Shown: positions 139 to 20,604, counted from the first letter of the stretch. The stretch: DNA of 32,000 bases from Candidatus Scalindua sp. (GCA_031316235.1 JALDRA010000001.1:90001-122000), one strand, 5' to 3'. Notes: a model not told the origin generated them from the sequence alone. Numbers and translations: made by a program.

Positions 139-264
139 AATTTAATGACAACGTTCCCCTGAGAGCTATGTATGAAGAGTGATGAATCACTCATTTTTGA
201 ATTTTGATTAGAATCGATGAAGGGAATTTTTTCCATTTTTCTTTTTTTAAATTTATCACGCCAC

Positions 265-458
265 ATGGCTGATGGCTCATGGCTGATGGCTGATGGCTCA
301 TAGCTCATGGCTGATGGTTAAGCGTTCAGAGGTTCAGCGTTCAAAGGTTCTGGGTTCAAGGTTCAGAGGTTCTGGGTTCAACGTTCTGGGTTCTGGGTTC
401 TGGGTTCAGCGTTCAAAGGTTCATGGCTCAAGGTTCAGGGTTGATGGCTGATGGTTGA
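265..458 (+). repeat. Heptamer/octamer tandem array 1 (GGTTCWG-type core flanked by ATGGCTSA-type units)
   Basis: Read directly: ATGGCTGATGGCTCATGGCTGATGG..., then GGTTCAG/AGGTTCAG/CGTTCAA/GGTTCTG units, then GTTGATGGCTGATGGTTGA. Abuts the stop codon of 4HB copy B1. Confidence 0.9.
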
Positions 459-3028: not shown

Positions 3029-3322
3029 ATGGCTGATGGCTCGTGGCTGATGGCTGATGGTTAAGCGTTCAGGGGTTCTGGGTTCAGAGGTTCGGGGTTC
3101 AGCGTTCAGGGTTCAGCGTTCAGGGTTGATGGCTGATGGCTCATAGCTCATGGCTCATGGTTAAGCGTTCAGAGGTTCGGGGTTCTGGGTTCAGAGGTTG
3201 ATGGCTCATGGCTCATGGTGGTTGGCTCATGGTTAAGCGTTCAGGGGTTCGGGGTTCAGAGGTTCGAGGTTCAGCGTTCAGAGGTTCTGGGTTCAAGGTT
3301 CAGGGTTGATGGCGGATGGCTT
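3029..3322 (+). repeat. Heptamer/octamer tandem array 2
   Basis: Three alternating blocks of ATGGCTSA units and GGTTCWG units, read directly. Confidence 0.9.
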
Positions 3323-3399
3323 AAAATTGATGGTGCATATAGCGAGATGGGTAAGAGGACAAGGCTGGAGGGGTTATGGCAGAAGGCACCTATCGTGAT

Positions 3400-3512
3400 T
3401 ATACTCATCTTATAATGGTTTTCGGACAAAATCCGAGATAAAATTGAGGGAGTATATCAGCAACCAAGATTTTGTTTCCGGTAAAACCGAAAACCAAATC
3501 GGTTTTAGTATA
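3400..3512 (+). mobile_element. MITE copy C3
   Basis: tatactcatcttataatggttttcggacaaaatccgag...aaaaccgaaaaccaaatcggttttagtata. Shares its terminal TA with C4 (tandem). Confidence 0.85.
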
Positions 3513-3844
3513 TACTCATCAGATAATAGTTCTCGGAGAAAATCCGGAAAAAAACGGAGGGGGCAAAGTCCTCGGAGCCTGGGGAAAGTCCTCGGCGCTT
3601 TTGTCCGGGGATACCATCAATCAGGCTTTGGTTTTTAGAAAAATCCAGTAGTGTCCGGTTAGGTTTTTGCGTATTTAATTTATAGCCCCAAAACTGTCAT
3701 TCCCGCATGTTTTTAGCGGGAATCTATTATGAAACGAGTCTCTGGATACCCGATAAAGACGTTCGGGTATGACAAAAGCCGCCTACGCAAAAACCTAACC
3801 GGACAATGTTGAGAAAAATCTAAAACCAAAGTGGTTTTAGTATA
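3511..3844 (+). mobile_element. MITE copy C4 carrying a nested element E
   Basis: Left part runs to ...ggctttggtttttagaaaaatc (3645). It resumes at agaaaaatctaaaaccaaagtggttttagtata (3812-3844). Confidence 0.8.
3646..3811 (+). mobile_element. 166-bp MITE E copy 1 (21-bp perfect TIR, 9-bp TSD)
   Basis: TIR GTCCGGTTAGGTTTTTGCGTA at 3653-3673 and its exact complement at 3784-3804. Direct duplication AGAAAAATC at 3637-3645 and 3812-3820. Uninterrupted target sequence is seen in MITE copies at 7450-7470 and 18958-18978. Confidence 0.85.
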
Positions 3845-3917
3845 ATCTGCAGATTTAACGGGGCAAGGCCTCCAGATGTTTAAAACGAAACTTTGTTTCA
3901 TACATTTTCTCCACCAT
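3845..3917 (-). pseudogene. 5' stub of a 4HB gene (copy B2), followed upstream by inverted ATGGCTSA units (3911-3980)
   Basis: Minus strand atggtggagaaaatgtatgaaacaaagtttcgtttt parallels atgatggagaaaatgtgtgaaacaaagtttagtttt of the other copies. It is truncated at the MITE boundary. Confidence 0.6.
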
Positions 3918-3986
3918 CAACTCTCCAACCATGAGCTATGAGCAATCAGCTATGAGCTATGAGCAATCAGCCATGATCCATATGCC

Positions 3987-5183: not shown

Positions 5184-5208
5184 TTTTTGTAATCCTTTAG
5201 AGGTTAAA

Positions 5209-5320
5209 AGGTTCTGGGTTCAAGGTTCTGGGTTCAGCGTTCAAAGGTTCTGGGTTCTGGGTTCTGGGTTCAAGGTTCAAGGTTAAAAGGTTCTGGGTTC
5301 TGCGTTCTGGGTTCAAAGGT
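5209..5320 (+). repeat. Heptamer array 3 (no ATGGCTSA flanks), between the intact 4HB stop and the degT-like start
   Basis: GGTTAAAAGGTTCTGGGTTCAAGGTTCTGGGTTCAGCGTTCAAAGGTTCTGGGTTCTGGGTTCTGGG... Overlaps the last codons of ORF 5313-5684. Confidence 0.9.
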
Positions 5321-5684
5321 TATTGTAGGTTAGCAAATATTTTATGAAACCACGTATAGTTGCTCTTGTACGTCCGGCATGATCATACACATCCTGAAAA
5401 TCAGCTTTCGTTATGTATTGTTGATCCAATGCAACATACAGCTCACTTTGGACCTCGGTACAAGATCGTTTTGCATATCGAAGAAAACGAACAAACTCAG
5501 GATTTGACTCAGAATCGAATCCTTCAGCAATATTGTGCATAGAAGAACCTGCTGCCCCCTGAATCTGTCTTTTCAAACCAAAGTCGCTATTAAATTTTTC
5601 TCTGTTCGTCAGCTTATAAACTTTCTGAGTTAACTCCCGTGCTAACTGCCACGCCTCAATATCCTCAAACCGTTCTATTTTCAT
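5313..5684 (-). CDS. Four-helix-bundle protein (23S rRNA IVS protein family), apparently intact, distinct subfamily
   Basis: 123 aa. FEDIEAWQLARELTQKVY...IAEGF...EFVRFLRYAKRSCTEVQSELYVA is the family signature. SD-like aggtga lies upstream of the ATG. Confidence 0.9.
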   Translation of the reverse strand: MKIERFEDIEAWQLARELTQKVYKLTNREKFNSDFGLKRQIQGAAGSSMHNIAEGFDSESNPEFVRFLRYAKRSCTEVQSELYVALDQQYITKADFQDVYDHAGRTRATIRGFIKYLLTYNNL

Positions 5685-5706
5685 GTCATCACCTACGAAA
5701 GCTAAC

Positions 5707-5846
5707 TATACTCATCTCATAATGGTTTTCGGATAAAATCCGAGATAAAATTGAGCAAGTAAAGTCCTCGGCGCTTTTTGTCCGGGGATAACTGCAACCA
5801 AGCTTTGGTTTTTTAAAAAGCCAAAAACCAAATCGGTTTTAGTATA
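5707..5846 (+). mobile_element. MITE copy C5 (long variant)
   Basis: tatactcatctcataatggttttcggataaaatccgag...agtcctcggcgctttttgtccgggg...aaaaaccaaatcggttttagtata. Truncates the MazF-like ORF. Confidence 0.85.
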
Positions 5847-5988: not shown

Positions 5989-6340
5989 TCCTCTAAGTCA
6001 ACGCATTTTAAATCTTCAGATATCTCTCTTAAATCACTCAAGAAAAGCTTATCCTGCATCACGTTTTTAAGTTCATTGATTTTGTTATACTCATCTCGTA
6101 ATGGTTTTCGGATAAAATCCGAGTTAAAATTGAGCGAGTATACCTTCACCAAGATTTGGTTTCCGGTAAAACCGAAAACCAAATCGGTTTTAGTATATTA
6201 TAATTATCAGTCTTTTTACGGAAAAATATAATGATCTCAATTGGATCGTTTTCTGGAACATGATCAGGAATCTTGATCAGAATCTCATGATTCTTGGGTG
6301 TTCTTACAATTTGCTTGATTGTATCCATATATTTCCGCAT
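5979..6340 (-). pseudogene. Putative antitoxin ORF split by MITE C6
   Basis: ORFs 6146-6340 and 5979-6182 share the MITE-derived middle. Deleting 6086-6195 (110 bp) fuses them in frame into an 83-aa ORF ending EEWQ*, which overlaps the toxin GTG by 10 nt. Confidence 0.6.
6086..6197 (+). mobile_element. MITE copy C6 (type copy, 108 bp plus TA)
   Basis: TA-tactcatctcgtaatggttttcggataaaatccgagttaaaattgagcgagtataccttcaccaagatttggtttccggtaaaaccgaaaaccaaatcggttttagta-TA. Removal restores an ORF. Confidence 0.9.
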
Positions 6341-6437
6341 TTGGGGTTAGAATTTCTTGATTTCTTTTAAGTTACATTACCCAAGATAAAAACTCAAGTA
6401 TTTTTCAGCAAATGACATTTAAGAATTAAAGTATATA

Positions 6438-6594
6438 GTTGATGGCGGATGGCTCATAGCTGATGGTTAAGCGTTCAAAGGTTCTGGGTTCTGGGTTCAG
6501 AGGTTCAGAGGTTCAGGGTTGATGGCTCATAGCTCATGGCGGTTGGCTCATGGTTAAGCGTTCAGGGGTTCAAGGTTGATGGCTGATGGTTGAT
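6438..6594 (+). repeat. Heptamer/octamer tandem array 4
   Basis: Read directly. Ends GTTGATGGCTGATGGTTGA, 5 nt before the stop of ORF 6597-6821. Confidence 0.9.
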
Positions 6595-6596
6595 AA

Positions 6597-6821
6597 TTAT
6601 TTCGTGATTGTTTTCTTTATTGAATTACGCCATTTACCTTCAGCAATATTTGCTGAAATTGATGTTGCGGATGATTCTAATTGTTCTATCAATCTATAAT
6701 GATTGCGATCAGAATTCATTGTATCTGCAATGCCAATAACACTCACTGCAAAATCTATAGATTTTTGCCAGACATCTAAATCTTCAAAACTAAACTTTGT
6801 TTCACACATTTTCTCCATCAT
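6597..6821 (-). CDS. Four-helix-bundle family protein, 74-aa in-frame deletion derivative (copy B3)
   Basis: Identical protein to 8298-8522. Compared with the 129-aa form reconstructable at 12065-12564 it lacks 56 internal codons (junction at GAATT). Confidence 0.7.
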   Translation of the reverse strand: MMEKMCETKFSFEDLDVWQKSIDFAVSVIGIADTMNSDRNHYRLIEQLESSATSISANIAEGKWRNSIKKTITK

Positions 6822-6860
6822 TAACCATCAGCTATGAACTATGAGCTATCAACCATGAGC

Positions 6861-7056
6861 TCTGTGCAATCTGCGGATGAATGTTTTTAAATTTTTCTGA
6901 TAAAACGGTCTCTGCTACCGGCTGCTATAGAATTTGAAGGGACGTATCTGGTTTACCACTCTGCCTCCACCAGCAATTGAGTTTCGTCCCAAACGTATTG
7001 ATTACAGGGGGAGTTCCCAATGGGCATATCGATACAGATCATGTCATTGTGAGTTT
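6861..7056. repeat. Conserved segment U (copy 2)
   Basis: Appears identical to 8562-8757. Close to 836-1030 and 16715-16910. Confidence 0.8.
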
Positions 7057-7169: not shown

Positions 7170-7372
7170 TCACGCCAGGACGCTAAGAACGCAAAGCATA
7201 AAAACTTTTAAAATCCTTTATATACATCTTTTCCTGTAAAACAATAGACGCATCAACCACAACCTTGCCTATTTCATTTTCTGTCATTCTTCTTGCGTAA
7301 AAGGTAAAATTATTTTTTTAATTTCATATCCTTTGCGTTCTCTGCGGCTTTGCGAGAAACTATTTTTTGAAA
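7170..7372. repeat. Repeat H (203 bp), containing a GxxExxY-type gene stub on the minus strand
   Basis: Reverse-complement copy at 20105-20604 (with two insertions). Partial copies at 1176-1350, 10455-10515 and 12587-12670. Confidence 0.75.
7219..7287 (-). pseudogene. GxxExxY-type (PD-(D/E)XK_3) protein, N-terminal ~21 codons only
   Basis: Own translation: MTENEIGKVVVDASIVLQEKM then junk. The MTENEI..vvDaaI.vH..lG N-terminus is characteristic of the GxxExxY family, but the GxxExxY motif itself is missing. Confidence 0.55.
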
Positions 7373-7485
7373 TAGACTCATCTCATAATGGTTTTCGGTG
7401 AAAATCCGTGAAAAAACAGAGCGGGTAAATCAGCAGCCAGGCTTTGGTTTTTAGAAAAATCTAAAACCAACTCGGTTTTAGTATA
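7373..7485 (+). mobile_element. MITE copy C8 (variant without GC hairpin)
   Basis: tagactcatctcataatggttttcggtgaaaatccgtg...cagccaggctttggtttttagaaaaatctaaaaccaactcggttttagtata. Confidence 0.8.
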
Positions 7486-7494
7486 TTGCAAACA

Positions 7495-7698: not shown

Positions 7699-8006
7699 GA
7701 GAAAAAAACCTTTCTTTCATCACTTTACATTTTATAGAATAGGAGCTCCCCCAAAAACTTATCTGATGATCATAATCAACAAATTCATCAAAACACTTGT
7801 ATATGCTTAACAATTTCTATACCTGACCAGGTAATTAAATAGTAAATTGTCTATAACCATTTGAAAAAACAGGAGCTTAAAACTTTTACCCCTCTGGGAA
7901 CCGTTGTCAGTGTGTCTGTTTTTCTTTACACTATTTCAGTATAATTGAAATTGTGAGTCCTGGGATTGAGATGTGTGCGTTGGTTGGGAAGAGGCTATAG
8001 TACGTC

Positions 8007-8294
8007 ATGGCTGATGGCTCATGGCTGATGGTTCTGGGTTCTGGGTTCAGGGTTCAGAGGTTCGGGGTTCAGCGTTCAGAGGTTCTGGGTTCTGGGTTGA
8101 TGGCTCATGGCTCATGGCGGATAGCTCATGGTTAAGCGTTCAGAGGTTCTGGGTTCAAGGTTCAGCGTTCAGAGGTTCGAGGTTCAGGGTTCAGAGGTTC
8201 AAGGTTCTGGGTTCTGGGTTCTGGGTTCAGAGGTTCGGGGTTCAGCGTTCAGAGGTTCTGGGTTCTGGGTTCTGGGTTGATGGCTGATGGTTGA
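8007..8294 (+). repeat. Heptamer/octamer tandem array 5
   Basis: Read directly. Two GGTTCWG blocks separated by an ATGGCTCATGGCTCATGGCGGATAGCTCATGG block. Confidence 0.9.
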
Positions 8295-8297
8295 TAA

Positions 8298-8522
8298 TTA
8301 TTTCGTGATTGTTTTCTTTATTGAATTACGCCATTTACCTTCAGCAATATTTGCTGAAATTGATGTTGCGGATGATTCTAATTGTTCTATCAATCTATAA
8401 TGATTGCGATCAGAATTCATTGTATCTGCAATGCCAATAACACTCACTGCAAAATCTATAGATTTTTGCCAGACATCTAAATCTTCAAAACTAAACTTTG
8501 TTTCACACATTTTCTCCATCAT
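8298..8522 (-). CDS. Four-helix-bundle family protein, 74-aa in-frame deletion derivative (copy B4)
   Basis: Same protein as 6597-6821. Flanks 8281-8786 read identical to 6580-7085. Confidence 0.7.
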   Translation of the reverse strand: MMEKMCETKFSFEDLDVWQKSIDFAVSVIGIADTMNSDRNHYRLIEQLESSATSISANIAEGKWRNSIKKTITK

Positions 8523-8561
8523 TAACCATCAGCTATGAACTATGAGCTATCAACCATGAGC

Positions 8562-8757
8562 TCTGTGCAATCTGCGGATGAATGTTTTTAAATTTTTCTG
8601 ATAAAACGGTCTCTGCTACCGGCTGCTATAGAATTTGAAGGGACGTATCTGGTTTACCACTCTGCCTCCACCAGCAATTGAGTTTCGTCCCAAACGTATT
8701 GATTACAGGGGGAGTTCCCAATGGGCATATCGATACAGATCATGTCATTGTGAGTTT
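8562..8757. repeat. Conserved segment U (copy 3)
   Basis: Appears identical to 6861-7056. Confidence 0.8.
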
Positions 8758-9684: not shown

Positions 9685-9748
9685 TGTAAACCCATCCTTT
9701 TCAATTTTTTACACCCCCCATATCTGCAGCTACCTATCCAACACTTGA

Positions 9749-9860
9749 TATACTCATCTCATAATGGTTTTCGGATAAAATCCGAGATAAAATTGAGCGA
9801 GTATACCTTCACCAAGATCTGGTTTCAGGTAAAACCGAAAACCAAATCGGTTTTAGTATA
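9749..9860 (+). mobile_element. MITE copy C10
   Basis: Near-identical to C6. Confidence 0.9.
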
Positions 9861-9949
9861 GTATCCGTTTATCATTTTAAAACAGGCCATAATTAATAGT
9901 GCGTAATGGACATGCCCTTTGTTATGTTCGGTAAACTTTCGTATTATAT

Positions 9950-10062: not shown

Positions 10063-10071
10063 TCACGCCAC

Positions 10072-10450
10072 ATGGCTGATGGCTCATAGCTGATGGTTCA
10101 GCGTTCAGGGGTTCTGGGTTCAAGGTTCAGGGTTCAGAGGTTCAGCGGTTCAAGGTTCAGAGGTTCAGGGTTCAGAGGTTCAGAGGTTCAAGGTTCAGAG
10201 TTCAGAGGTTCTGGGTTCAGGGTTCAAGGTTCAAGGTTCAAGGTTCAGGGTTCAGAGGTTCAGAGGTTCAAGGTTCTGGGTTAAGCGTTCAGGGGTTAAG
10301 CGTTCAGGGGTTCTGGGTTCTGGGTTCTGGGTTCAAGGTTCTGGGTTCAAGGTTCTGGGTTCAAGGTTCAAGGTTCTGGGTTCAAGGTTCAAGGTTCTGG
10401 GTTCAAGGTTCTGGGTTCTGGGTTCTGGGTTCAGGGTTGATGGCTCATGG
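10072..10450 (+). repeat. Heptamer/octamer tandem array 6 (longest, ~380 bp; no 4HB ORF attached)
   Basis: Read directly. Includes GGGGTTCTGGGTTCTGGGTTCTGGG at 10307-10331 and a second four-run G tract near 10413-10437. Confidence 0.9.
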
Positions 10451-10625
10451 GGTAAAGATGTAGTAGATATTCATCGCGATCTCTGCGGCTTTGCGAGAAA
10501 CTATTTTTTGATATACTTATCTGCCGGAAGATTTTAAAGAAATTACCATTCAAACATATCTTTTTACCTTCTCTTAAAATTATGGTACACTGCGGCCTTT
10601 GAAACCTTACAAACCAGGAATTTTT

Positions 10626-11849: not shown

Positions 11850-11910
11850 GACAGATATGGGTTCAGGGAAATATACTTTAACGGTCCGGATGGAAAGGTT
11901 TTAGTATATC

Positions 11911-12066
11911 ATGGCTCATAGCTCATGGCTCATGGCTGATGGTTCAAGGTTCAGAGGTTCAGCGTTCAGGGTTGATGGCTGATGGCTGATGGTTCAGCGT
12001 TCAAAGGTTCTGGATTCTGGGTTCAGAGGTTCAAGGTTCAGCGTTCAGAGTTGATGGTTCAGGGTT
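11911..12066 (+). repeat. Heptamer/octamer tandem array 7
   Basis: Read directly. Preceded by a MITE right-end remnant ggttttagtata (11897-11908). Confidence 0.9.
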
Positions 12067-12564
12067 ATTTCGTAATTGTTTTCTTTATTGAATTTATGAG
12101 ACTTGAAAGTTGTTTACCTATTGTATCTCCTACTATTCGTAAATCATTAAGCTTTGAATTGGAGATCCAATTCTTTTTGTAAAATATAGTTAAAAAAGTA
12201 ATTGTTTCAAATAGTGAGCCCCGTGCAATATATAGATATTGGATGAATTCTTTTTGGAATTACGTCCTTTCCCTTCAGCAATATACTAAAACCGATTTGG
12301 TTTTCGGTTTTTCTGAAAAACAAATCTTGGTTGCAGTTATACTCGCTCCGTTTTTACTCGGATTTTATCCGAAAACTATTATGAAATGAGTATATTTGCT
12401 GAAATTGATGTTGCGGATGATTCTAATTGTTCTATCAATCTATAATGATTGCGATCAGAATTCATTGTATCTGCAATGCCAATAACACTCACTGCAAAAT
12501 CTATAGATTTTTGCCAGACATCTAAATCTTCAAAACTAAACTTTGTTTCACATATTTTCTCCAT
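12065..12564 (-). pseudogene. Four-helix-bundle gene copy B5: undeleted (129-aa) form, disrupted by a MITE and a 1-nt frameshift
   Basis: After removing 12284-12394 and adding one A to the run at 12251-12255, the minus strand reads MEKICETKF...SISANIAEGKGRNSKKEFIQYLYIARGSLFETITFLTIFYKKNWISNSKLNDLRIVGDTIGKQLSSLINSIKKTITK*. Confidence 0.75.
12284..12394 (-). mobile_element. MITE copy C12 in 4HB gene B5 (same TA as C1 and C15)
   Basis: cagcaaTA-tactaaaaccgatttgg...atgagta-TAtttgctg. Confidence 0.85.
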
Positions 12565-12586
12565 CTTTAACCATCAGCTATGAGCC

Positions 12587-12622
12587 ATCAACCACAACCT
12601 TGCCTATTTCATTTTCTGTCAT
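12587..12622 (-). pseudogene. GxxExxY-type gene stub (12 codons) fused to the upstream IR of 4HB copy B5
   Basis: Minus strand ATGACAGAAAATGAAATAGGCAAGGTTGTGGTTGATGG = MTENEIGKVVVD. Confidence 0.45.
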
Positions 12623-13344
12623 TCTTCCTGGCGATCCCTGCGGCTTTGCGAGAAACTATTTTTTGATGTAAAAAATTCAATTATCCTGTTTGCAACATCA
12701 TGTTCTCTCCCGATATAGAAGTGGTCGCACTCTTGTAAGATTTCAAGCCTCTTCGGTTCAGCCATTGCCGACACTCCTTTTTTCACTTCCTCAATAGGCG
12801 TCGCAAAATCATTGTCTGCACAAACAATGTACTTAGGTTTCGTACAGTCAGCTAAGACATGAGTCTTAAACCTGCCGAATGGTAAAGAGATGAGTGCAAA
12901 TGAGCGGATCCTCTCATGCCGTGCACTGAGCATCATTGCAACTATTGCGCCAAATGAATATCCAACAGCATATATCACGTCTGAGCCGGTGACTGATTCA
13001 AGAAATTCCAGTGCCGCAGATGCATCCGCTAATGCGTCCGCGTAATCATCATTATTCAAGACATCTTCCCAGTAATTGTATTGTTCAGCGACATTCTCAA
13101 AACAGCTTTCGCTCTTACCGACACCGCAATAGTTAAACCGTAATGTGACAAACTCTCTCTCTGCAGATTCGCTGGCAAGTGTTGTAATTACATTATTATC
13201 CATATCACCACCAAGATGGGGATGGGGCGGACATAAGAGGAGTGCCGGAGGATTAATGACCTCTTCATCATAAGAGATAATCCCCTCTACCTTCATACCT
13301 CCTGATTTGAAATAGACGTGCTCCTCAATCATTACAATCAGCAT
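12619..13344 (-). CDS. Alpha/beta hydrolase (COG2945-like); the ORF track extends it to 13440
   Basis: PPHPHLGGDMDNNV, RFNYCGVGKSE and the nucleophile elbow GYSFGA. The last 15 codons (SKNSFSQSRRDRQEE*) are encoded by repeat H sequence. Start chosen at MLIVMIEEH by family length; no clear SD at any candidate start. Confidence 0.75.
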   Translation of the reverse strand: MLIVMIEEHVYFKSGGMKVEGIISYDEEVINPPALLLCPPHPHLGGDMDNNVITTLASESAEREFVTLRFNYCGVGKSESCFENVAEQYNYWEDVLNNDDYADALADASAALEFLESVTGSDVIYAVGYSFGAIVAMMLSARHERIRSFALISLPFGRFKTHVLADCTKPKYIVCADNDFATPIEEVKKGVSAMAEPKRLEILQECDHFYIGREHDVANRIIEFFTSKNSFSQSRRDRQEE

Positions 13345-13529
13345 TCGAGACTGTTTTCTGCGGCCCAGATAAAAGAGAATTTGACGATTGCCCTCCAATC
13401 CGTTTTCACAGAGTAATACTGTACCGGAAAACAGATACATGGAATAAAAACTGAAAATTCAGATATGGCAACAGAAAACCAGACCCGTGGTTTTACGAAA
13501 GGCTTAACTCCCGGTTTGCTCACAACCTC

Positions 13530-14208: not shown

Positions 14209-15953
14209 TCAGTTTTCAGAACCAGGTTTCACCTGAACTTTACATCTTTCTAAATGAATTTCTCCATCCTCTATAACAGCCTTGATATTGTCCCCTGCCT
14301 GAAATTTCCTGTTCACAATACACAGGGAGAGCGTGTTTTCCATCTCACGATCAATTTTGCCCTCTTGAGTGGCCGGGCACCATACCGGAGATCATATCCA
14401 TCAGACACAAGCTTTTCTTTTACCTCGAGTTCAATGTGAAGAGTAAGGTTATTGTCCTCCAATCTCCGGGTAAGCTGAGAGAGAAGTATTTCCAGAATAC
14501 GGGCTATATGCTCTTTCGACAGCGAATGAAAAACGATCATATCATCTAACCGATTGATAAATTCAGGTTTGAAATATTTCTTCACCTCAGAGAGGACAAG
14601 ATCTTTGGCTTCATCGTGGCTTATGATTCCAGGGCCTGCTTTAAAGCCGATTTCCTGTTTTTCCGCAAGCTTCTCACTTCCTATATTTGAAGTCCCGATG
14701 ATAATGGTATTTCGAAAACTTATCGCGTGGCCCTGTGCGTCAGTGAGCCGCCCCTCATCAAGTACCTTAAACAGCATATTGAAAACATCAGGATGCGCCT
14801 TTTCCACCTCATCAAGCAGTACCACGGCGTACGGAACACGCTTTATCTTTTCCGTAAGCTGTCCCCCCTCTCCATACCCTACATAACCAGGCGGGGATCC
14901 AATAAGTTTTGCAACTTCATGGCGCTCCATATATACTGACATATCCAGTCGAACAATACGTGTCTCATCATCAAACAGGAATTCAGCCAATGCCTTTGCC
15001 AACTCAGTTTTCCTGACCCCTGTCGGCCCAAGAAAGAGAAATGCACCAATAGGCCTTGATACCTCCCTGAGTCCTGCCCTGTTTCTTCTTATCGCATCAG
15101 CAATCGCCCTTACCGCAGCTTCCTGCGCAACAATTCGTTCATGAATCTTCTCTTCCATATGTGCCAGCTTTTCCGCCTCACTCTCAAGCATCCGTATTGC
15201 AGGTATACCTGTCCAGCTGGAAACAACAGCGGCAATGTCCTCGGATGTAATCGAACTGTCTTTTTCTTTCAATTCCTTTTGCCACTTTTCCTTCTGAGCG
15301 GCAAGCTTGGTTTCGATCACCTGGAGTTTTGCATGATGCTTTGTCGCCTCCTCAAAATCCTGCTGTTCAAATGCCTCTTTTTTAAGAGCGGTGTGTGTTC
15401 TTTTTTCGTTTTCTAATCTTTTAATTCCAGGTGGTGTATAATGCAATTCAAGATGCTTCTTTGAACCTGCTTCATCCAGTAGATCTATTGCCTTGTCAGG
15501 TTGCGCCCTGTCAGTTATATAGCGGTCAGAGAGCCGCGCAGCTGCATCTATCGATTCCGGGGTATAGGTAATCTCATGATGTTTTTCATAATAGGATTTC
15601 AGCCCTACAAGGATCTGTTTCGTCTCCTCAATCCCTGGTTCGCTTACTGTTACTGTCTGAAATCTTCGTGCAAGCGCCTTATCCGATTCAACATATTTAC
15701 GGTAATCATCGTAGGTAGTTGCACCTATGAGCTGCAGCTGGCCCCGAGCGAGTGCAGGCTTAAGGATGTCGTGCGCCCCCATACCGCCACTCCCTCCCCC
15801 GCCCCCGATACCAACGACGGTATGTAATTCATCAATAAAAAGGATAAACTCTGAAGTGAAAACATTACGCTTCATATTGACCTGTTCCATGGTCCCGATG
15901 TTTGTGGCATCGAGCACTTTCTTGGTACAATATCTTATATATTTCTGAAGCAC
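14209..15953 (-). pseudogene. clpC: ClpC-type AAA+ chaperone, probably pseudogenised (5' part missing, P-loop substitution, 3' frameshift)
   Basis: ORF 14313-15953 starts inside NBD1 (..ILFIDELH). It has a short M-domain with a UVR-like QDFEEA motif and an NBD2 Walker A reading GPTGVRKT instead of GPTGVGKT. After GARPLKRA a T-run at 14355-14358 shifts the frame. The +1 frame continues IDREMENTLSLCIVNRKFQAGDNIKAVIEDGEIHLE to a stop at 14209. Confidence 0.7.
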
Positions 15954-16159: not shown

Positions 16160-16168
16160 TCACGCCAC

Positions 16169-16336
16169 ATAGCTCATGGCTGATGGCTCATGGTTCAGGG
16201 GTTCAGGGGTTCTGGGTTCTGGGGTTCTGGGTTCAGAGGTTCTGGGTTCAGAGGTTCTGGGTTCTGGGTTGATGGCTCATGGTTCAGGGGTTCAGGGGTT
16301 CTGGGTTCTGGGTTCTGGGTTGATGGCTGATGGTTA
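16169..16336 (+). repeat. Heptamer/octamer tandem array 8
   Basis: Read directly. Two blocks with 5-6 consecutive G3-4 runs spaced by TTCA/TTCT. Confidence 0.9.
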
Positions 16337-16340
16337 ATAA

Positions 16341-16675
16341 TTATTTCGTGATTGTTTTCTTTATTGAATTACGCCATTTACCTTCAGCAATATACTAAAA
16401 CCAATTTGGTTTTCGGTTTTTCTGAAAAACAAATCTTGGTGAAGGTATACTCGCTCCGTTTTTACTCGGATTTTATCCGAAAACTATTATGAAATGAGTA
16501 TATTTGCTGAAATTGATATTGCGGATGATTCTAATTGTTCTATCAATCTATAATGATTGCGATCAGAATTTGTTGTATCTGCAATGCCAATAACACTCAC
16601 TGCAAAATCTATAGATTTTTGCCAGGCATCTAAATCTTCAAAACTAAACTTTGTTTCACACATTTTCTCCATCAT
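16341..16675 (-). pseudogene. Four-helix-bundle gene copy B6, internally deleted and split by a MITE
   Basis: Same structure as B1. ORF 16487-16675 plus a tail at 16341-16392. Confidence 0.8.
16393..16502 (-). mobile_element. MITE copy C15 in 4HB gene B6
   Basis: Same insertion point and near-identical sequence to C1. Confidence 0.85.
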
Positions 16676-16714
16676 TAACCATCAGCAATGAACTATGAGC
16701 TATCAACCATGAGC

Positions 16715-16910
16715 TCTGTGCAATCTGCGGATGAATGTTTTTAAATTTTTCTGATTCAATGGTATCTTTTACCGGCTACTGTAGAATTTGAAGGGACGTC
16801 TCTGCTTTACCACTCTGCCTGCACCAGCAATTGAGTTTCGCCCCAAACGTATTGAGTACAGGGAGAGTTCCCAATGGGTATATCGATACAGATCATGTCA
16901 TTGTGGGTTT
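16715..16910. repeat. Conserved segment U (copy 4, most diverged)
   Basis: Aligns with 6861-7056, with scattered substitutions. Confidence 0.8.
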
Positions 16911-18278: not shown

Positions 18279-18344
18279 ACGACACTGATTCCTTATAAAG
18301 TTTAACGGCTGAACGAAGATCCACCATCTGCTGCGCTTCGGTAA

Positions 18345-18456
18345 TATACTAAAACCGATTTGGTTTTCGGTTTTACCGGAAACCAAATCTTGGTGAAGGT
18401 ATACTCGCTCAAATTTATCTCGGATTTTATCCGAAAACCATTATAAGATGAGTATA
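18345..18456 (-). mobile_element. MITE copy C18
   Basis: Reverse complement is near-identical to C6. Confidence 0.9.
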
Positions 18457-18854
18457 ATTCGACTCTCTGCAGGTCCAGTAGTGCTTTTCGGATGCAGATT
18501 TTCCAGGGCAAGTCAGTGTTCAATTGGCTGGTTTTCCTCCATCCACGATTTATTTAATGCTTATCGTCATAAAAAAAATTATTTCCACTGTTTTTTTTCA
18601 GTTTTTGATTTTGATAATCTCTTATATTATTGATATCATATTACCTTTACTGATGAAAACCAGACGCCTGAATTTTAAATCCGTTATTCAGTGGTTGGAT
18701 AAAGGCTATCCATCTGCTGAATTGATGTGACATAAGTCTTAACCACCCGGTATATGAGTAAATTTCGGCTGTGAAATCAGCCTGACAGGTATCCGGGCTG
18801 TTTCAGTACAGCCACTGGAGTTTCTTTTCAGGCATTTTTTATTGAATCAGACCA

Positions 18855-20104: not shown

Positions 20105-20157
20105 TATAAAAAATAGTCTCTCGCAAAGCCGCAGGGATCGCGAAGAAGATGCAAATT

Positions 20158-20323
20158 CATCAATGTCCGGTTAGGTTTTTGCGTATTTAATTTATTGCCA
20201 CAAAACTGTCATTCCCGCATGTTTTTAGCGGGAATCTACGATGAAACGAGTCTCTGGATACCCGATAAAGGCGTTCGGGTATGACGAAAGCCGCCTACGC
20301 AAAAACCTAACCGGACGCTACTG
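20158..20323 (+). mobile_element. 166-bp MITE E copy 2
   Basis: TIRs at 20165-20185 and 20296-20316, identical to copy 1. Direct duplication ATGCAAATT at 20149-20157 and 20324-20332. Confidence 0.85.
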
Positions 20324-20375
20324 ATGCAAATTGAAAAATAAATAAAAAAATATTTTTACCTTTTAAGCAAGAAGA

Positions 20376-20444
20376 ATGACAGAAAATGAAATAGACAAGG
20401 TTGTGGCTGATGAGTCTATTGTTTTACAGGAAAAGATGTATATA
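20376..20444 (+). pseudogene. GxxExxY-type gene stub
   Basis: ATGACAGAAAATGAAATAGACAAGGTTGTGGCTGATGAG... = MTENEIDKVVADESIVLQEKM, cut by MITE C21. Confidence 0.5.
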
Positions 20445-20555
20445 TACTAAAACCGATTTGGTTTTCGGTTTTACCGGAAACAAAATCTTGGTTGCTGGTA
20501 TACTTGCTCAAATTTATCTCGGATTTTATCCGAAAACCATTATGAGATGAGTATA
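20443..20555 (-). mobile_element. MITE copy C21 inserted in repeat H
   Basis: Filled site gatgtataTA-tactaaaacc...gagta-TAaaagatttt. The homologous empty site (reverse complement of 7212-7230) reads gatgtatataaaggatttt. Confidence 0.9.
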
Positions 20556-20604
20556 AAAGATTTTAAATGTTTTTATGCTTTGCGTTCTTAGCGTCTTGGC
20601 GTGA

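Follow-up and report, generated by a model that had tools for sequence, protein, structure and literature searches.

The 23S rRNA intervening sequences (IVSs) of Leptospira, Coxiella, Xanthomonas, and Brucella carry an open reading frame (ORF) for S23p, a four-helix bundle (4HB) protein, and the corresponding family, PF05635, is related to Avd of the diversity-generating retroelements (DGRs). Repetitive extragenic palindromic (REP) sequences, bacterial interspersed mosaic elements (BIMEs), and REP doublets forming hairpins (REPINs) are dispersed intergenic inverted pairs, which can form hairpins, occur in many copies per genome, and are in some cases linked to a dedicated protein gene. Among the short tandemly repeated repetitive (STRR) sequences of cyanobacteria, the heptanucleotide units CCCCAGT, TTGGTCA, and CAACAGT are said to have been described by Mazel et al. 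in 1990. We know of no established origin or function for bacterial heptamer repeats, noted since 1990 (STRRs) and over-represented, and to our knowledge the PF05635 family is functionally blank outside DGR Avd. Here we analyze a stretch of 32,000 nucleotides from Candidatus Scalindua sp. (GCA_031316235.1 JALDRA010000001.1:90001-122000), hereafter called the window, which contains eight heptamer arrays; these are almost certainly the downstream (3') arms of gene cassettes that encode a 4HB protein of this family.

In the Coxiella 23S IVS, two to three strain-variable GACAGAT heptamers directly precede the S23p ORF, the terminal stem measures 28 bp, cleavage by RNase III takes place at the first repeat, and the ORF is in decay, with a 176-bp ORF deletion in one strain (PMC4990558). 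Heptamer simple sequence repeats (SSRs) are over-represented in bacteria (PMC4692102, PMC6749651). The GGGAATC repeats of Xanthomonas form 70 to 75 convergent pairs on opposite strands, for which no associated gene was reported, and their length varies between species while the repeat type is kept; together with the GGGGAYT repeats of Nostoc, they were read as G-quadruplex (G4) elements and shown to form such structures in vitro (Rehm et al. 2015, PMC4692102). The TAACTGA repeats of Beggiatoaceae, cyanobacteria, and Bacteroidetes form arrays just upstream of start codons, show a patchy spread across phyla, and have been proposed to act post-transcriptionally (MacGregor 2015, PMC4679880). A full-text search of the open-access and preprint literature found no paper linking PF05635 or TIGR02436 with heptamer arrays beyond the Coxiella note, and none tying STRRs to a gene.

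Results

The heptamer arrays adjoin 4HB genes

Tandem Repeats Finder (TRF) located eight arrays with a period of 7 or 8 in the window (264-458, 3029-3322, 5202-5321, 6438-6594 with its core at 6480-6520, 8005-8294, 10071-10438, 11909-12066, and 16168-16321), in agreement within a few bases with the eight arrays of an earlier note on this DNA. That note had described them as a free-standing satellite of the STRR kind. The period of 7 supports tandem heptanucleotide arrays of this kind, but they do not stand free, as seven of the eight form the 3' arm of a 4HB gene cassette. A minus-strand ORF of the family PF05635 (23S_rRNA_IVP), equivalent to TIGR02436 ("four helix bundle protein"), is located directly to the right of six arrays; seven arrays are directly 3' of a minus-strand 4HB gene or remnant, and six of these seven are accompanied by a reverse-complement array of cap-type units (described below) on the 5' side of the gene. 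The recurring layout, which is absent from the earlier note, consists of a plus-strand array, a 4HB gene on the minus strand, and a reverse cap array, the last standing directly 5' of the type-B ORFs or relic. Two 4HB subfamilies are present. The type-A ORF at 5313-5684 matches PF05635 (E = 7.8e-29), TIGR02436 (E = 2.3e-27), and PDB entry 2GSC (E = 5.7e-11), and fragments of the second subfamily, type B, with 62 to 74 amino acids, are found at 608-796, 6597-6821 (PF05635, E = 5.4e-15), 8298-8522, 12379-12564, and 16487-16675.

The arrays are composed of GGTTCNG units and cap-type ATRGCTS units, 7 to 8 nt long and joined head to tail with no spacers; their unit spectrum is GTTCTGG (44), GTTCAGAG (26), GTTCAAG (22), and GTTCAGC (13). 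A chance origin is excluded, since the 596-Gb genome collection as a whole would be expected to hold a 21-nt pattern of this type about two times. GGTTCAG has 54 copies on the plus strand versus 2 on the minus strand, and GGTTCTG 52 versus 1; the plus strand of the window has no run of three or more GAAC-type units, and over its whole length no pair of GAACC units spaced 6 to 9 nt apart. Short arrays of cap-type units (ATGGCTS/ATAGCTC) exist in the opposite orientation (798-836, 3929-3976, 6823-6861, 8524-8562, 12576-12594, and 16677-16715), indicating that the repeat family is not strictly strand-uniform. The strand uniformity claimed previously thus stands for the GGTTCNG arrays, all of which are G-rich on the plus strand, and fails for the cap-type units. 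It follows the orientation of the cassettes, which are all encoded by the minus strand and run with the majority of local genes, and no replication signal is needed.

The two arms of a cassette are complementary and co-vary

Read in the sense direction of the gene, the 5' arm consists of GGTTCNG or ATRGCTS units and the 3' arm of their complement. The heptamer differs by locus, and the arms of one cassette match each other, as in GGTTCAG/CTGAACC, GGTTCAC/GTGAACC, GTTTCCC/GGGAAAC (locus L179), and TTTAGGG/CCCTAAA (locus L160). The mean arm complementarity score is 19.7 within the same locus versus 17.4 across loci, and none of 10,000 permutations reached the observed value (P < 1e-4). Besides being complementary, the arms vary in concert with one another and with the protein subfamily; conservation extends to the period of 7 nt and to the complementarity between arms, not to the G4 potential. 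RNA folding predicts a 37-bp stem round the ORF at locus L121 (z = -4.7) and, for window positions 6430-6870, pairing of the 5' arm with the outermost cap block (z = -3.9).

Type-A cassettes in relatives

A metagenome scan for the type-A gene yielded 80 loci with 71 to 87% identity. Arm counts were made on the 66 loci in which the gene has 150 nt or more of sequence on either side, an array being defined as at least three units within 250 nt; this wide metagenome sampling represents the type-A subfamily only, as the diverse 4HB alignment had no block conserved enough. A GGTTC-type array is found upstream in 61 of the 66 loci and a GAACC-type array downstream in 59, both being present in 56, and few arrays have the wrong orientation (11 upstream, 3 downstream). 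The arms have a median length of 5 units each, and array density reaches 4.72 per kb beside the gene versus 0.136 per kb elsewhere, a 35-fold difference. Neighboring genes are mostly co-directional with the 4HB gene (55/63 upstream, 44/51 downstream), and their proteins fall into 98 clusters among 114, indicating that the cassette occupies many different sites. The arms can hold the stop codons of upstream genes and the start codons of downstream genes, for instance the dinB ATG in CTATGAACCC.

The type-A protein of the window has more than 5,000 relatives in the protein collection, the best 120 of which are 83 to 89% identical. Named relatives among these 120 belong to metagenome-assembled genomes (MAGs) of Desulfobacterales, Desulfatibia, and Desulfobacteraceae (NCBI names), whereas the host of the window is Scalindua (Planctomycetota); this would reflect either cross-phylum transfer of the cassette or mis-binned contigs.

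Two further arrangements were observed among the relatives. At L133, L145, L150, L164, and L192, a short run complementary to the 5' arm stands between it and the start codon; this arm could pair either locally or with the distant 3' arm, making a switch possible. At L121 (4604-5263; also at L123 to L125 and L128), an ORF with a weak match to Y1 transposases (PF01797) lies between dinB and dnaE2. The L121 ORF starts in an array of CTGGTCA heptamers, a possible link to heptamer repeats resembling that of the REP-associated tyrosine transposases (RAYTs).

Cassettes in other subfamilies and phyla

The design of a gene between inverted heptamer arrays is found in the other phyla sampled, cyanobacteria included. 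Type-B relatives in Kuenenia, Nitrospira, Thermodesulfovibrionales, and a proteobacterial MAG have AGCTCAT-type arrays upstream and ATGAGCT-type arrays downstream, and all four are located in polysaccharide operons. Other subfamilies show GGAGTGA/CACTCCA arms (L194), an ATCCTAC array after the stop codon (L029), or AAATCTC arrays (L098). With an objective score, z exceeded 4.9 for 13 of 19 non-type-A cassettes, and period 7 was the best in nearly all of them.

A plasmid search by tblastn returned 23 records, nearly all cyanobacterial, and 13 genes were inspected (12 from cyanobacteria, 1 from Riemerella). Inverted heptamer arms flank 10 of the 13; the remaining three have direct arrays, a one-sided array, and none, respectively. 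The arm units are GGGAGTA, CAGGAGT, GGTGACA, GGGTGTA, GGCAGAG, GGAGATA, and GGGAAAA, with GGTTCAA in Riemerella, and 4HB genes with flanking arrays occur on plasmids of Nostoc, Calothrix, Anabaena, Aulosira, Stanieria, Geminocystis, and Picosynechococcus. In this respect the STRR analogy of the earlier note is closer than it had assumed, as 4HB genes on cyanobacterial plasmids are heptamer-flanked too, although units and host differ. In 50 kb of the Nostoc punctiforme plasmid pNPUN01, four inverted heptamer pairs are distributed among about 43 genes; at this frequency, a gene would be flanked on both sides by chance with a probability on the order of 1%.

On plasmids of Pseudanabaena (L225), Anabaena sp. 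90 (L227), and Picosynechococcus (L229), the 4HB cassettes are situated inside CRISPR-Cas operons, in the orders cas6-4HB-cas4 (twice) and cmr2-4HB-cmr3. Genes of the 23S_rRNA_IVP family wedged in cas operons have been noted by Zhang et al. (PMC3936711).

Heptamer arrays and hairpins without the gene

When one genome per species was scanned for GGTTCWG repeated three times in a row, at least 120 loci were obtained, and the matches listed come from Acidobacteriota, Planctomycetota, Verrucomicrobiota, Lentisphaerota, Desulfobacterota, Chloroflexota, cyanobacteria, Bacteroidota, and others. Period 7 accounts for 295 of the 758 TRF rows in these listed loci, compared with 14 rows of period 6 and 35 of period 8, and about half of the period-7 arrays use unrelated units. 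The arrays are often arranged as inverted pairs with spacers of 7 to 165 nt, and other units also pair with their own complement. The inverted pairs are G-rich-first in 12 cases versus 0 in the opposite order (e.g., L001 2359-2508, L046 7372-7547, and L078 1477-1960). The idea that a 4HB gene stands beside every GGTTC array in other phyla was rejected, as this holds for only 2 of the 120 listed loci. Most of these loci are gene-less hairpins, so arrays can exist without the gene, and solo hairpins outnumber the gene-bearing ones. The solo hairpins may be relics, non-autonomous copies, or targets that were there before the gene.

Cassette copies in the window and growth of the arrays

The window belongs to a Scalindua lineage: its GlmS shares 95% identity with the GlmS of Candidatus Scalindua sp. 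AMX11, the other named matches listed being from Scalindua or Planctomycetes, and its 74-residue 4HB ORF shares 99% identity with a protein whose name refers to a Scalindua MAG. An intact relative of the type-B cassettes is found in L212, the contig of a close relative that carries the MITEs (miniature inverted-repeat transposable elements) of the window at 97% identity. The L212 gene encodes 129 amino acids; its 5' arm has 5.6 cap-type heptamers, and its 3' arm has about 10.6 heptamers, only 2 to 3 of which are of the CTGAACC type. When the L212 cassette is mapped onto the window, the 74-residue ORFs are seen to derive from an internal deletion of about 153 nt, and three copies are split by MITEs. 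The window arrays correspond to 2 to 5 tandem copies of the approximately 75-nt arm with an expanded GGTTCNG core, and the internal "caps" of the arrays result from this tandem duplication.

In the following, 3' arms are on the plus strand, and genes and 5' arms are on the minus strand. Array 1 (264-458; TRF, sequence) is an amplified 3' arm with the order cap, GGTTCNG core, cap, and matches the L212 3' arm. It is followed by a type-B pseudogene (459-796) with the internal deletion and a MITE at 510-623, which leaves a residual ORF at 608-796 and is 99% identical to L212 cassette positions 1-224, and by a 5' arm formed by a reverse-complement cap array (798-844, AACCATGAGCTATC on plus; TRF, L212 mapping). 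Array 2 (3029-3322; TRF, L212 mapping) contains 72-nt higher-order repeats of cap-core blocks. Its cassette is reduced to a relic (3863-3981) comprising the first 50 nt or so of the type-B ORF (3863-3915) and the 5' arm (3920-3981), 79% identical to L212 cassette positions 1-103, and the gap between array and relic is filled by MITEs. Array 3 (5209-5320; TRF, sequence) is the 3' arm of the type-A cassette, and the TGA stop codon of the gene falls within a repeat unit. The type-A gene itself (5313-5684; PF05635, TIGR02436, PDB 2GSC/2RLD) is intact and encodes 123 amino acids; a MITE occupies 5703-5846.

Array 4 (6438-6594; TRF, sequence, L212 mapping) consists of about three tandem copies of the approximately 75-nt 3' arm and precedes a type-B ORF of 74 amino acids with the internal deletion of about 153 nt (6597-6821; PF05635, comparison with the intact L212 gene) and a 5' arm (6823-6869; TRF) that is predicted by RNA folding to pair with the outer cap block. 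Array 5 (8005-8294; TRF, sequence, L212 mapping), an amplified 3' arm, is followed by a type-B ORF (8298-8522; ORF search, L212 mapping) that also has 74 amino acids, is identical to that at 6597-6821, and shares the same internal deletion, and by its 5' arm (8524-8570; TRF, L212 mapping). Array 6 (10072-10450; sequence, L212 mapping, repeat family D20), the longest of the eight with 47 GTTC-centered units, is an orphan 3' arm. Array 7 (11911-12066; TRF) has about the length of the 3' arm in L212, the match to L212 being 83% over 390 nt; the adjoining type-B gene (12067-12564), which lacks the internal deletion, is split by a MITE at 12280-12394, and the 5' arm is at 12566-12602 (both from L212 mapping). 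Array 8 (16169-16336; TRF, sequence), an amplified 3' arm, precedes a type-B pseudogene with the internal deletion and a MITE at 16389-16502 (16337-16675; L212 mapping) and a 5' arm at 16677-16723 (TRF, L212 mapping).

The copies at 6566-6945 and 8267-8646 have flanks that are 99 to 100% identical, whereas their arrays measure 157 and 288 bp, indicating that the arrays change far faster than their surroundings. The variation in length and unit order that the earlier note ascribed to slippage was thus confirmed among copies with 96 to 100% identical flanks, and slippage or unequal exchange fits it. One of ten near-identical metagenome loci shows a 2-unit deletion in its array, and the syntenic region of Scalindua AMX11 has no arrays, no cassettes, and no MITEs. 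The loci retrieved for comparison do not include the genome from which the window comes. Large amplification is not peculiar to the window, as a 64-unit (447-bp) GAACC-type array is found 200 nt upstream of a type-A 4HB gene on a metagenome contig (L192 2353-2799). Taken together, the window arrays are amplified arms of mostly dead cassette copies.

Other features of the arrays and the window

The C-rich strand of the arrays has a TGA in every unit, closing all frames within 21 nt, and the arrays lie outside Pfam-supported genes; coding repeats were dropped for this reason, and the plus-strand ORFs that span arrays (8021-8287 and 10093-10284) are translations of the repeats. The arrays do not have the repeats of 23 to 50 nt with unique spacers of similar length that define a CRISPR array. 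Rfam gave no match in the window, rRNA included, and no known RNA family or tRNA was found at the arrays. Promoter-like sites (37 versus 43 expected) and intrinsic-terminator-like sites (13 versus 16 expected, none at the arrays) are not enriched, and PADLOC found no match to an anti-phage defense family. Look-ups by exact sequence gave no match for the DegT protein of the window or for protein P0121. The cyanobacterial highly iterated palindrome HIP1 (GCGATCGC) has no match in the window, consistent with the earlier statement that it is not in excess.

A repeat of 49 nt (..CTCTGCGGCTTTGCGAGAAACTATTTTTTGA..) at 7326-7374, 10467-10515, and 12622-12670 adjoins the right end of the array at 10072-10450 and also lies to the right of two other cassettes (family D20); one copy forms the 3' end of an alpha/beta-hydrolase ORF (12619-13440). 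The MITE-like element, about 115 to 120 nt long with internal hairpins (TATACTCATC...GGTTTTAGTATA), is present in the window at least 24 times, complete or in part and in either orientation, including the copies at 510-623, 3399-3513, 5707-5846, 6082-6201, 7373-7487, 9745-9864, 12280-12394, 16389-16502, 18342-18457, and 20442-20556; three copies are inside 4HB remnants. A ClpB-like ORF adjoining cassette 8 (14313-15953) has 546 amino acids only (AAA_lid_9, AAA_2, D2-small), lacks the N-terminal part, and looks truncated. In addition, a direct repeat of 190 nt with 89% identity is found at 3641-3830 and 20153-20342.

Discussion

We consider it probable that, as a whole, the arrays are explained as arms of an IVS-like 4HB cassette that close a stem round the ORF. 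The cassette is a PF05635/TIGR02436 gene ("23S rRNA intervening-sequence protein," S23p) placed between inverted heptamer arms, which can close a long stem with the ORF in its loop, and it sits tight between genes, oriented like its neighbors. In this Scalindua genome, most copies are relics, namely, type-B ORFs with an internal deletion or a MITE, and one type-A copy is intact; the 3' arm has grown in two ways, by tandem duplication of the approximately 75-nt arm and by gain of GGTTCNG units through slippage. Once transcribed, the arms could form double-stranded RNA, which RNase III would cut, so that the insert would be freed from the host transcript and its insertion tolerated. This stem and RNase III mechanism, modeled on the IVS, is put forward only tentatively. 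Both the 7-nt register and the way in which each arm unit goes with a protein subfamily suggest that the arms are read by the protein or by some other factor.

Several observations weigh against this explanation. The array at 10072-10450 is without any 4HB remnant, and the type-A gene at 5313-5684 is without a 5' arm. Flanking arrays are direct rather than inverted in L098, Pseudanabaena L225, and Kuenenia L213, the best flank-to-flank match at the Kuenenia locus being direct. A 4HB gene lies within 8 kb in just 2 of the 120 listed GGTTCWG loci, and only one of the four inverted heptamer pairs in 50 kb of the Nostoc plasmid holds the gene. RNase III cleavage of these cassettes is argued wholly from analogy. 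Moreover, the arm mismatches comprise 113 of G·T type versus 131 of A·C type (P = 0.28), with no excess of G·U on the sense strand; lacking such a wobble bias, the complementarity could equally be kept by a DNA-level process, and nothing points to selection for a sense-RNA stem over such a process.

A DNA-level mobile element is one reading to be weighed. Its arms would be terminal inverted repeats built of 7-bp protein-binding sites, as in the subterminal repeats of some transposons and in REPINs; these would be bound by the 4HB protein, or by an enzyme of the host or of the RAYT type, to move or copy the cassette, and the solo hairpins would be non-autonomous derivatives. Near-identical cassettes in many gene contexts (the 98 neighbor clusters among 114), an arm unit that tracks the protein subfamily across phyla, and the 83 to 89% identity of the type-A protein to proteins of Desulfobacterales MAGs despite the Scalindua host all fit such an element, as do the absence of cassettes from the syntenic AMX11 region and the strand-symmetric spectrum of arm mismatches. 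The 12-to-0 G-rich-first order of the inverted pairs points to a polar process, and the Y1-transposase-like ORF at L121 begins in a heptamer array. However, no catalytic motif is known in PF05635; neither target-site duplications nor empty sites came to notice, though no search was aimed at them; and no transposase is encoded beside the window cassettes. A weak match to Y1 transposases (PF01797), for which part of the window ORFs were scanned, was seen only in the relatives L121 to L128. The start and stop codons of neighboring genes within the arms suggest long residence rather than recent hopping, and on balance we regard the mobile element as rather unlikely. A Rho-loading or insulator tract, in which the amplified (CUGAACC)n, rich in C, poor in G, and far longer than the 5' arm, would stay unpaired, act like a rut site, and end transcription after a dead cassette, is improbable. 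It would suit the array at 10072-10450, whose plus strand counts 140 G and 55 C, so that C makes up about 37% and G about 15% of the sense RNA, and the lack of intrinsic terminators at the arrays; however, this reading is drawn wholly from base composition. The G-rich-first polarity of all the pairs would hide the C-rich arm once it is made, a point counted in its favor, yet the short arms in relatives lie within operons just before the next start codon, where termination would do harm.

Two further readings treat the arrays as independent of the cassettes, and we give very little credence to either. Free-standing STRR-like microsatellites that arise by slippage, with no tie to the neighboring genes, would agree with the excess of heptamer SSRs in bacteria (PMC4692102, PMC6749651) and with arrays that differ in length between otherwise identical copies, including the 2-unit deletion in 1 of 10 metagenome loci. 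Slippage accounts for how arrays grow but not for where they are placed: seven of the eight are placed and oriented alike with respect to a 4HB remnant, paired arms occur in 56 of 66 relatives, and density beside the gene is raised 35-fold. According to the other reading, the G-rich strand folds into a G4 and pauses replication or transcription, strand uniformity then reflecting replication direction. The motifs are real as sequences, in that a strict search for G3+N1-7 with at least four runs finds the four places named in the earlier note (10307-10331, 10413-10436, 16198-16231, and 16287-16319, the last two in array 8) and nowhere else in the window, and the heptamers GGGAATC and GGGGAYT have been shown to form G4 in vitro (PMC4692102); G4 formation at these four spots is therefore possible. 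As a property shared by the arrays it does not hold up, since the full motif is present in only two of the eight and most units have just GG. Related arms are built of units without G-runs (GGTTCAC, AGCTCAT, GGAGTGA, and GGTGACA), the sense transcript of the cassette carries the C-rich strand, and orientation follows the cassette, with cap arrays in reverse.

The tie between arrays and 4HB genes turns the arrays into arms of an IVS-like cassette and gives the protein a candidate nucleic-acid partner with a defined 7-nt register. It also accounts for 4HB genes wedged inside cas, SOS, and polysaccharide operons, and it supplies an annotation rule, by which a period-7 inverted pair round an ORF of about 120 codons marks a 4HB cassette. 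A far broader extension, which we consider doubtful, is that much of the heptanucleotide excess of bacteria consists of arms or gene-less relics of one widespread class of IVS-like selfish 4HB cassettes, covering the STRRs, Xanthomonas GGGAATC, and the arrays of Planctomycetota, Desulfobacterota, Nitrospirota, Bacteroidota, and Acidobacteriota, whose pentameric product would read the arms in a 7-nt register and promote their processing or spread. If true, the selfish-cassette reading would point to the origin of the DGR accessory protein Avd.

Comparison with known systems

The cassettes share features with each of the repeat systems described above. Like the STRRs, the arrays are intergenic runs of tandem 7-nt units, of which one genome holds many types; they differ in their units (GGTTCNG/ATRGCTS) and in their host, Ca. 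Scalindua of the Planctomycetota rather than a heterocystous cyanobacterium. The GGGAATC and GGGGAYT repeats are likewise intergenic heptamer SSRs with G-rich units, and Xanthomonas encodes a 4HB protein of solved structure, Xcc0516 (PDB 2GSC). Here, however, arm pairing round the 4HB gene is the main feature and G4 is incidental, as arrays with at least four G3 runs and loops of at most 7 nt are confined to four stretches in two of the eight window arrays. The TAACTGA repeats differ in being nearly all direct (one inverted set among 170), in having 2 to 6 copies, and in having no reported link to 4HB (PMC4679880). In turn, REPs are single imperfect palindromes of 20 to 40 nt, and their partner is a Y1 transposase (RAYT), not a four-helix bundle.

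The closest known object to these cassettes is the 23S rRNA IVS with its S23p ORF. Both have a PF05635 protein in the loop, complementary termini for a long stem, variable tandem heptamers by the ORF, and decay of the ORF. Unlike the IVS, which is inserted in 23S rRNA (helix 25 or 45), the window cassettes lie between protein-coding genes, and in relatives they sit among genes of polysaccharide, SOS, and cas operons. The arms are also whole arrays, typically of about 5 units and up to 47 to 64, and the 3' arm in the window is amplified to 110 to 380 bp. The cassettes are an IVS-like element outside rRNA with heptamer arrays as arms.

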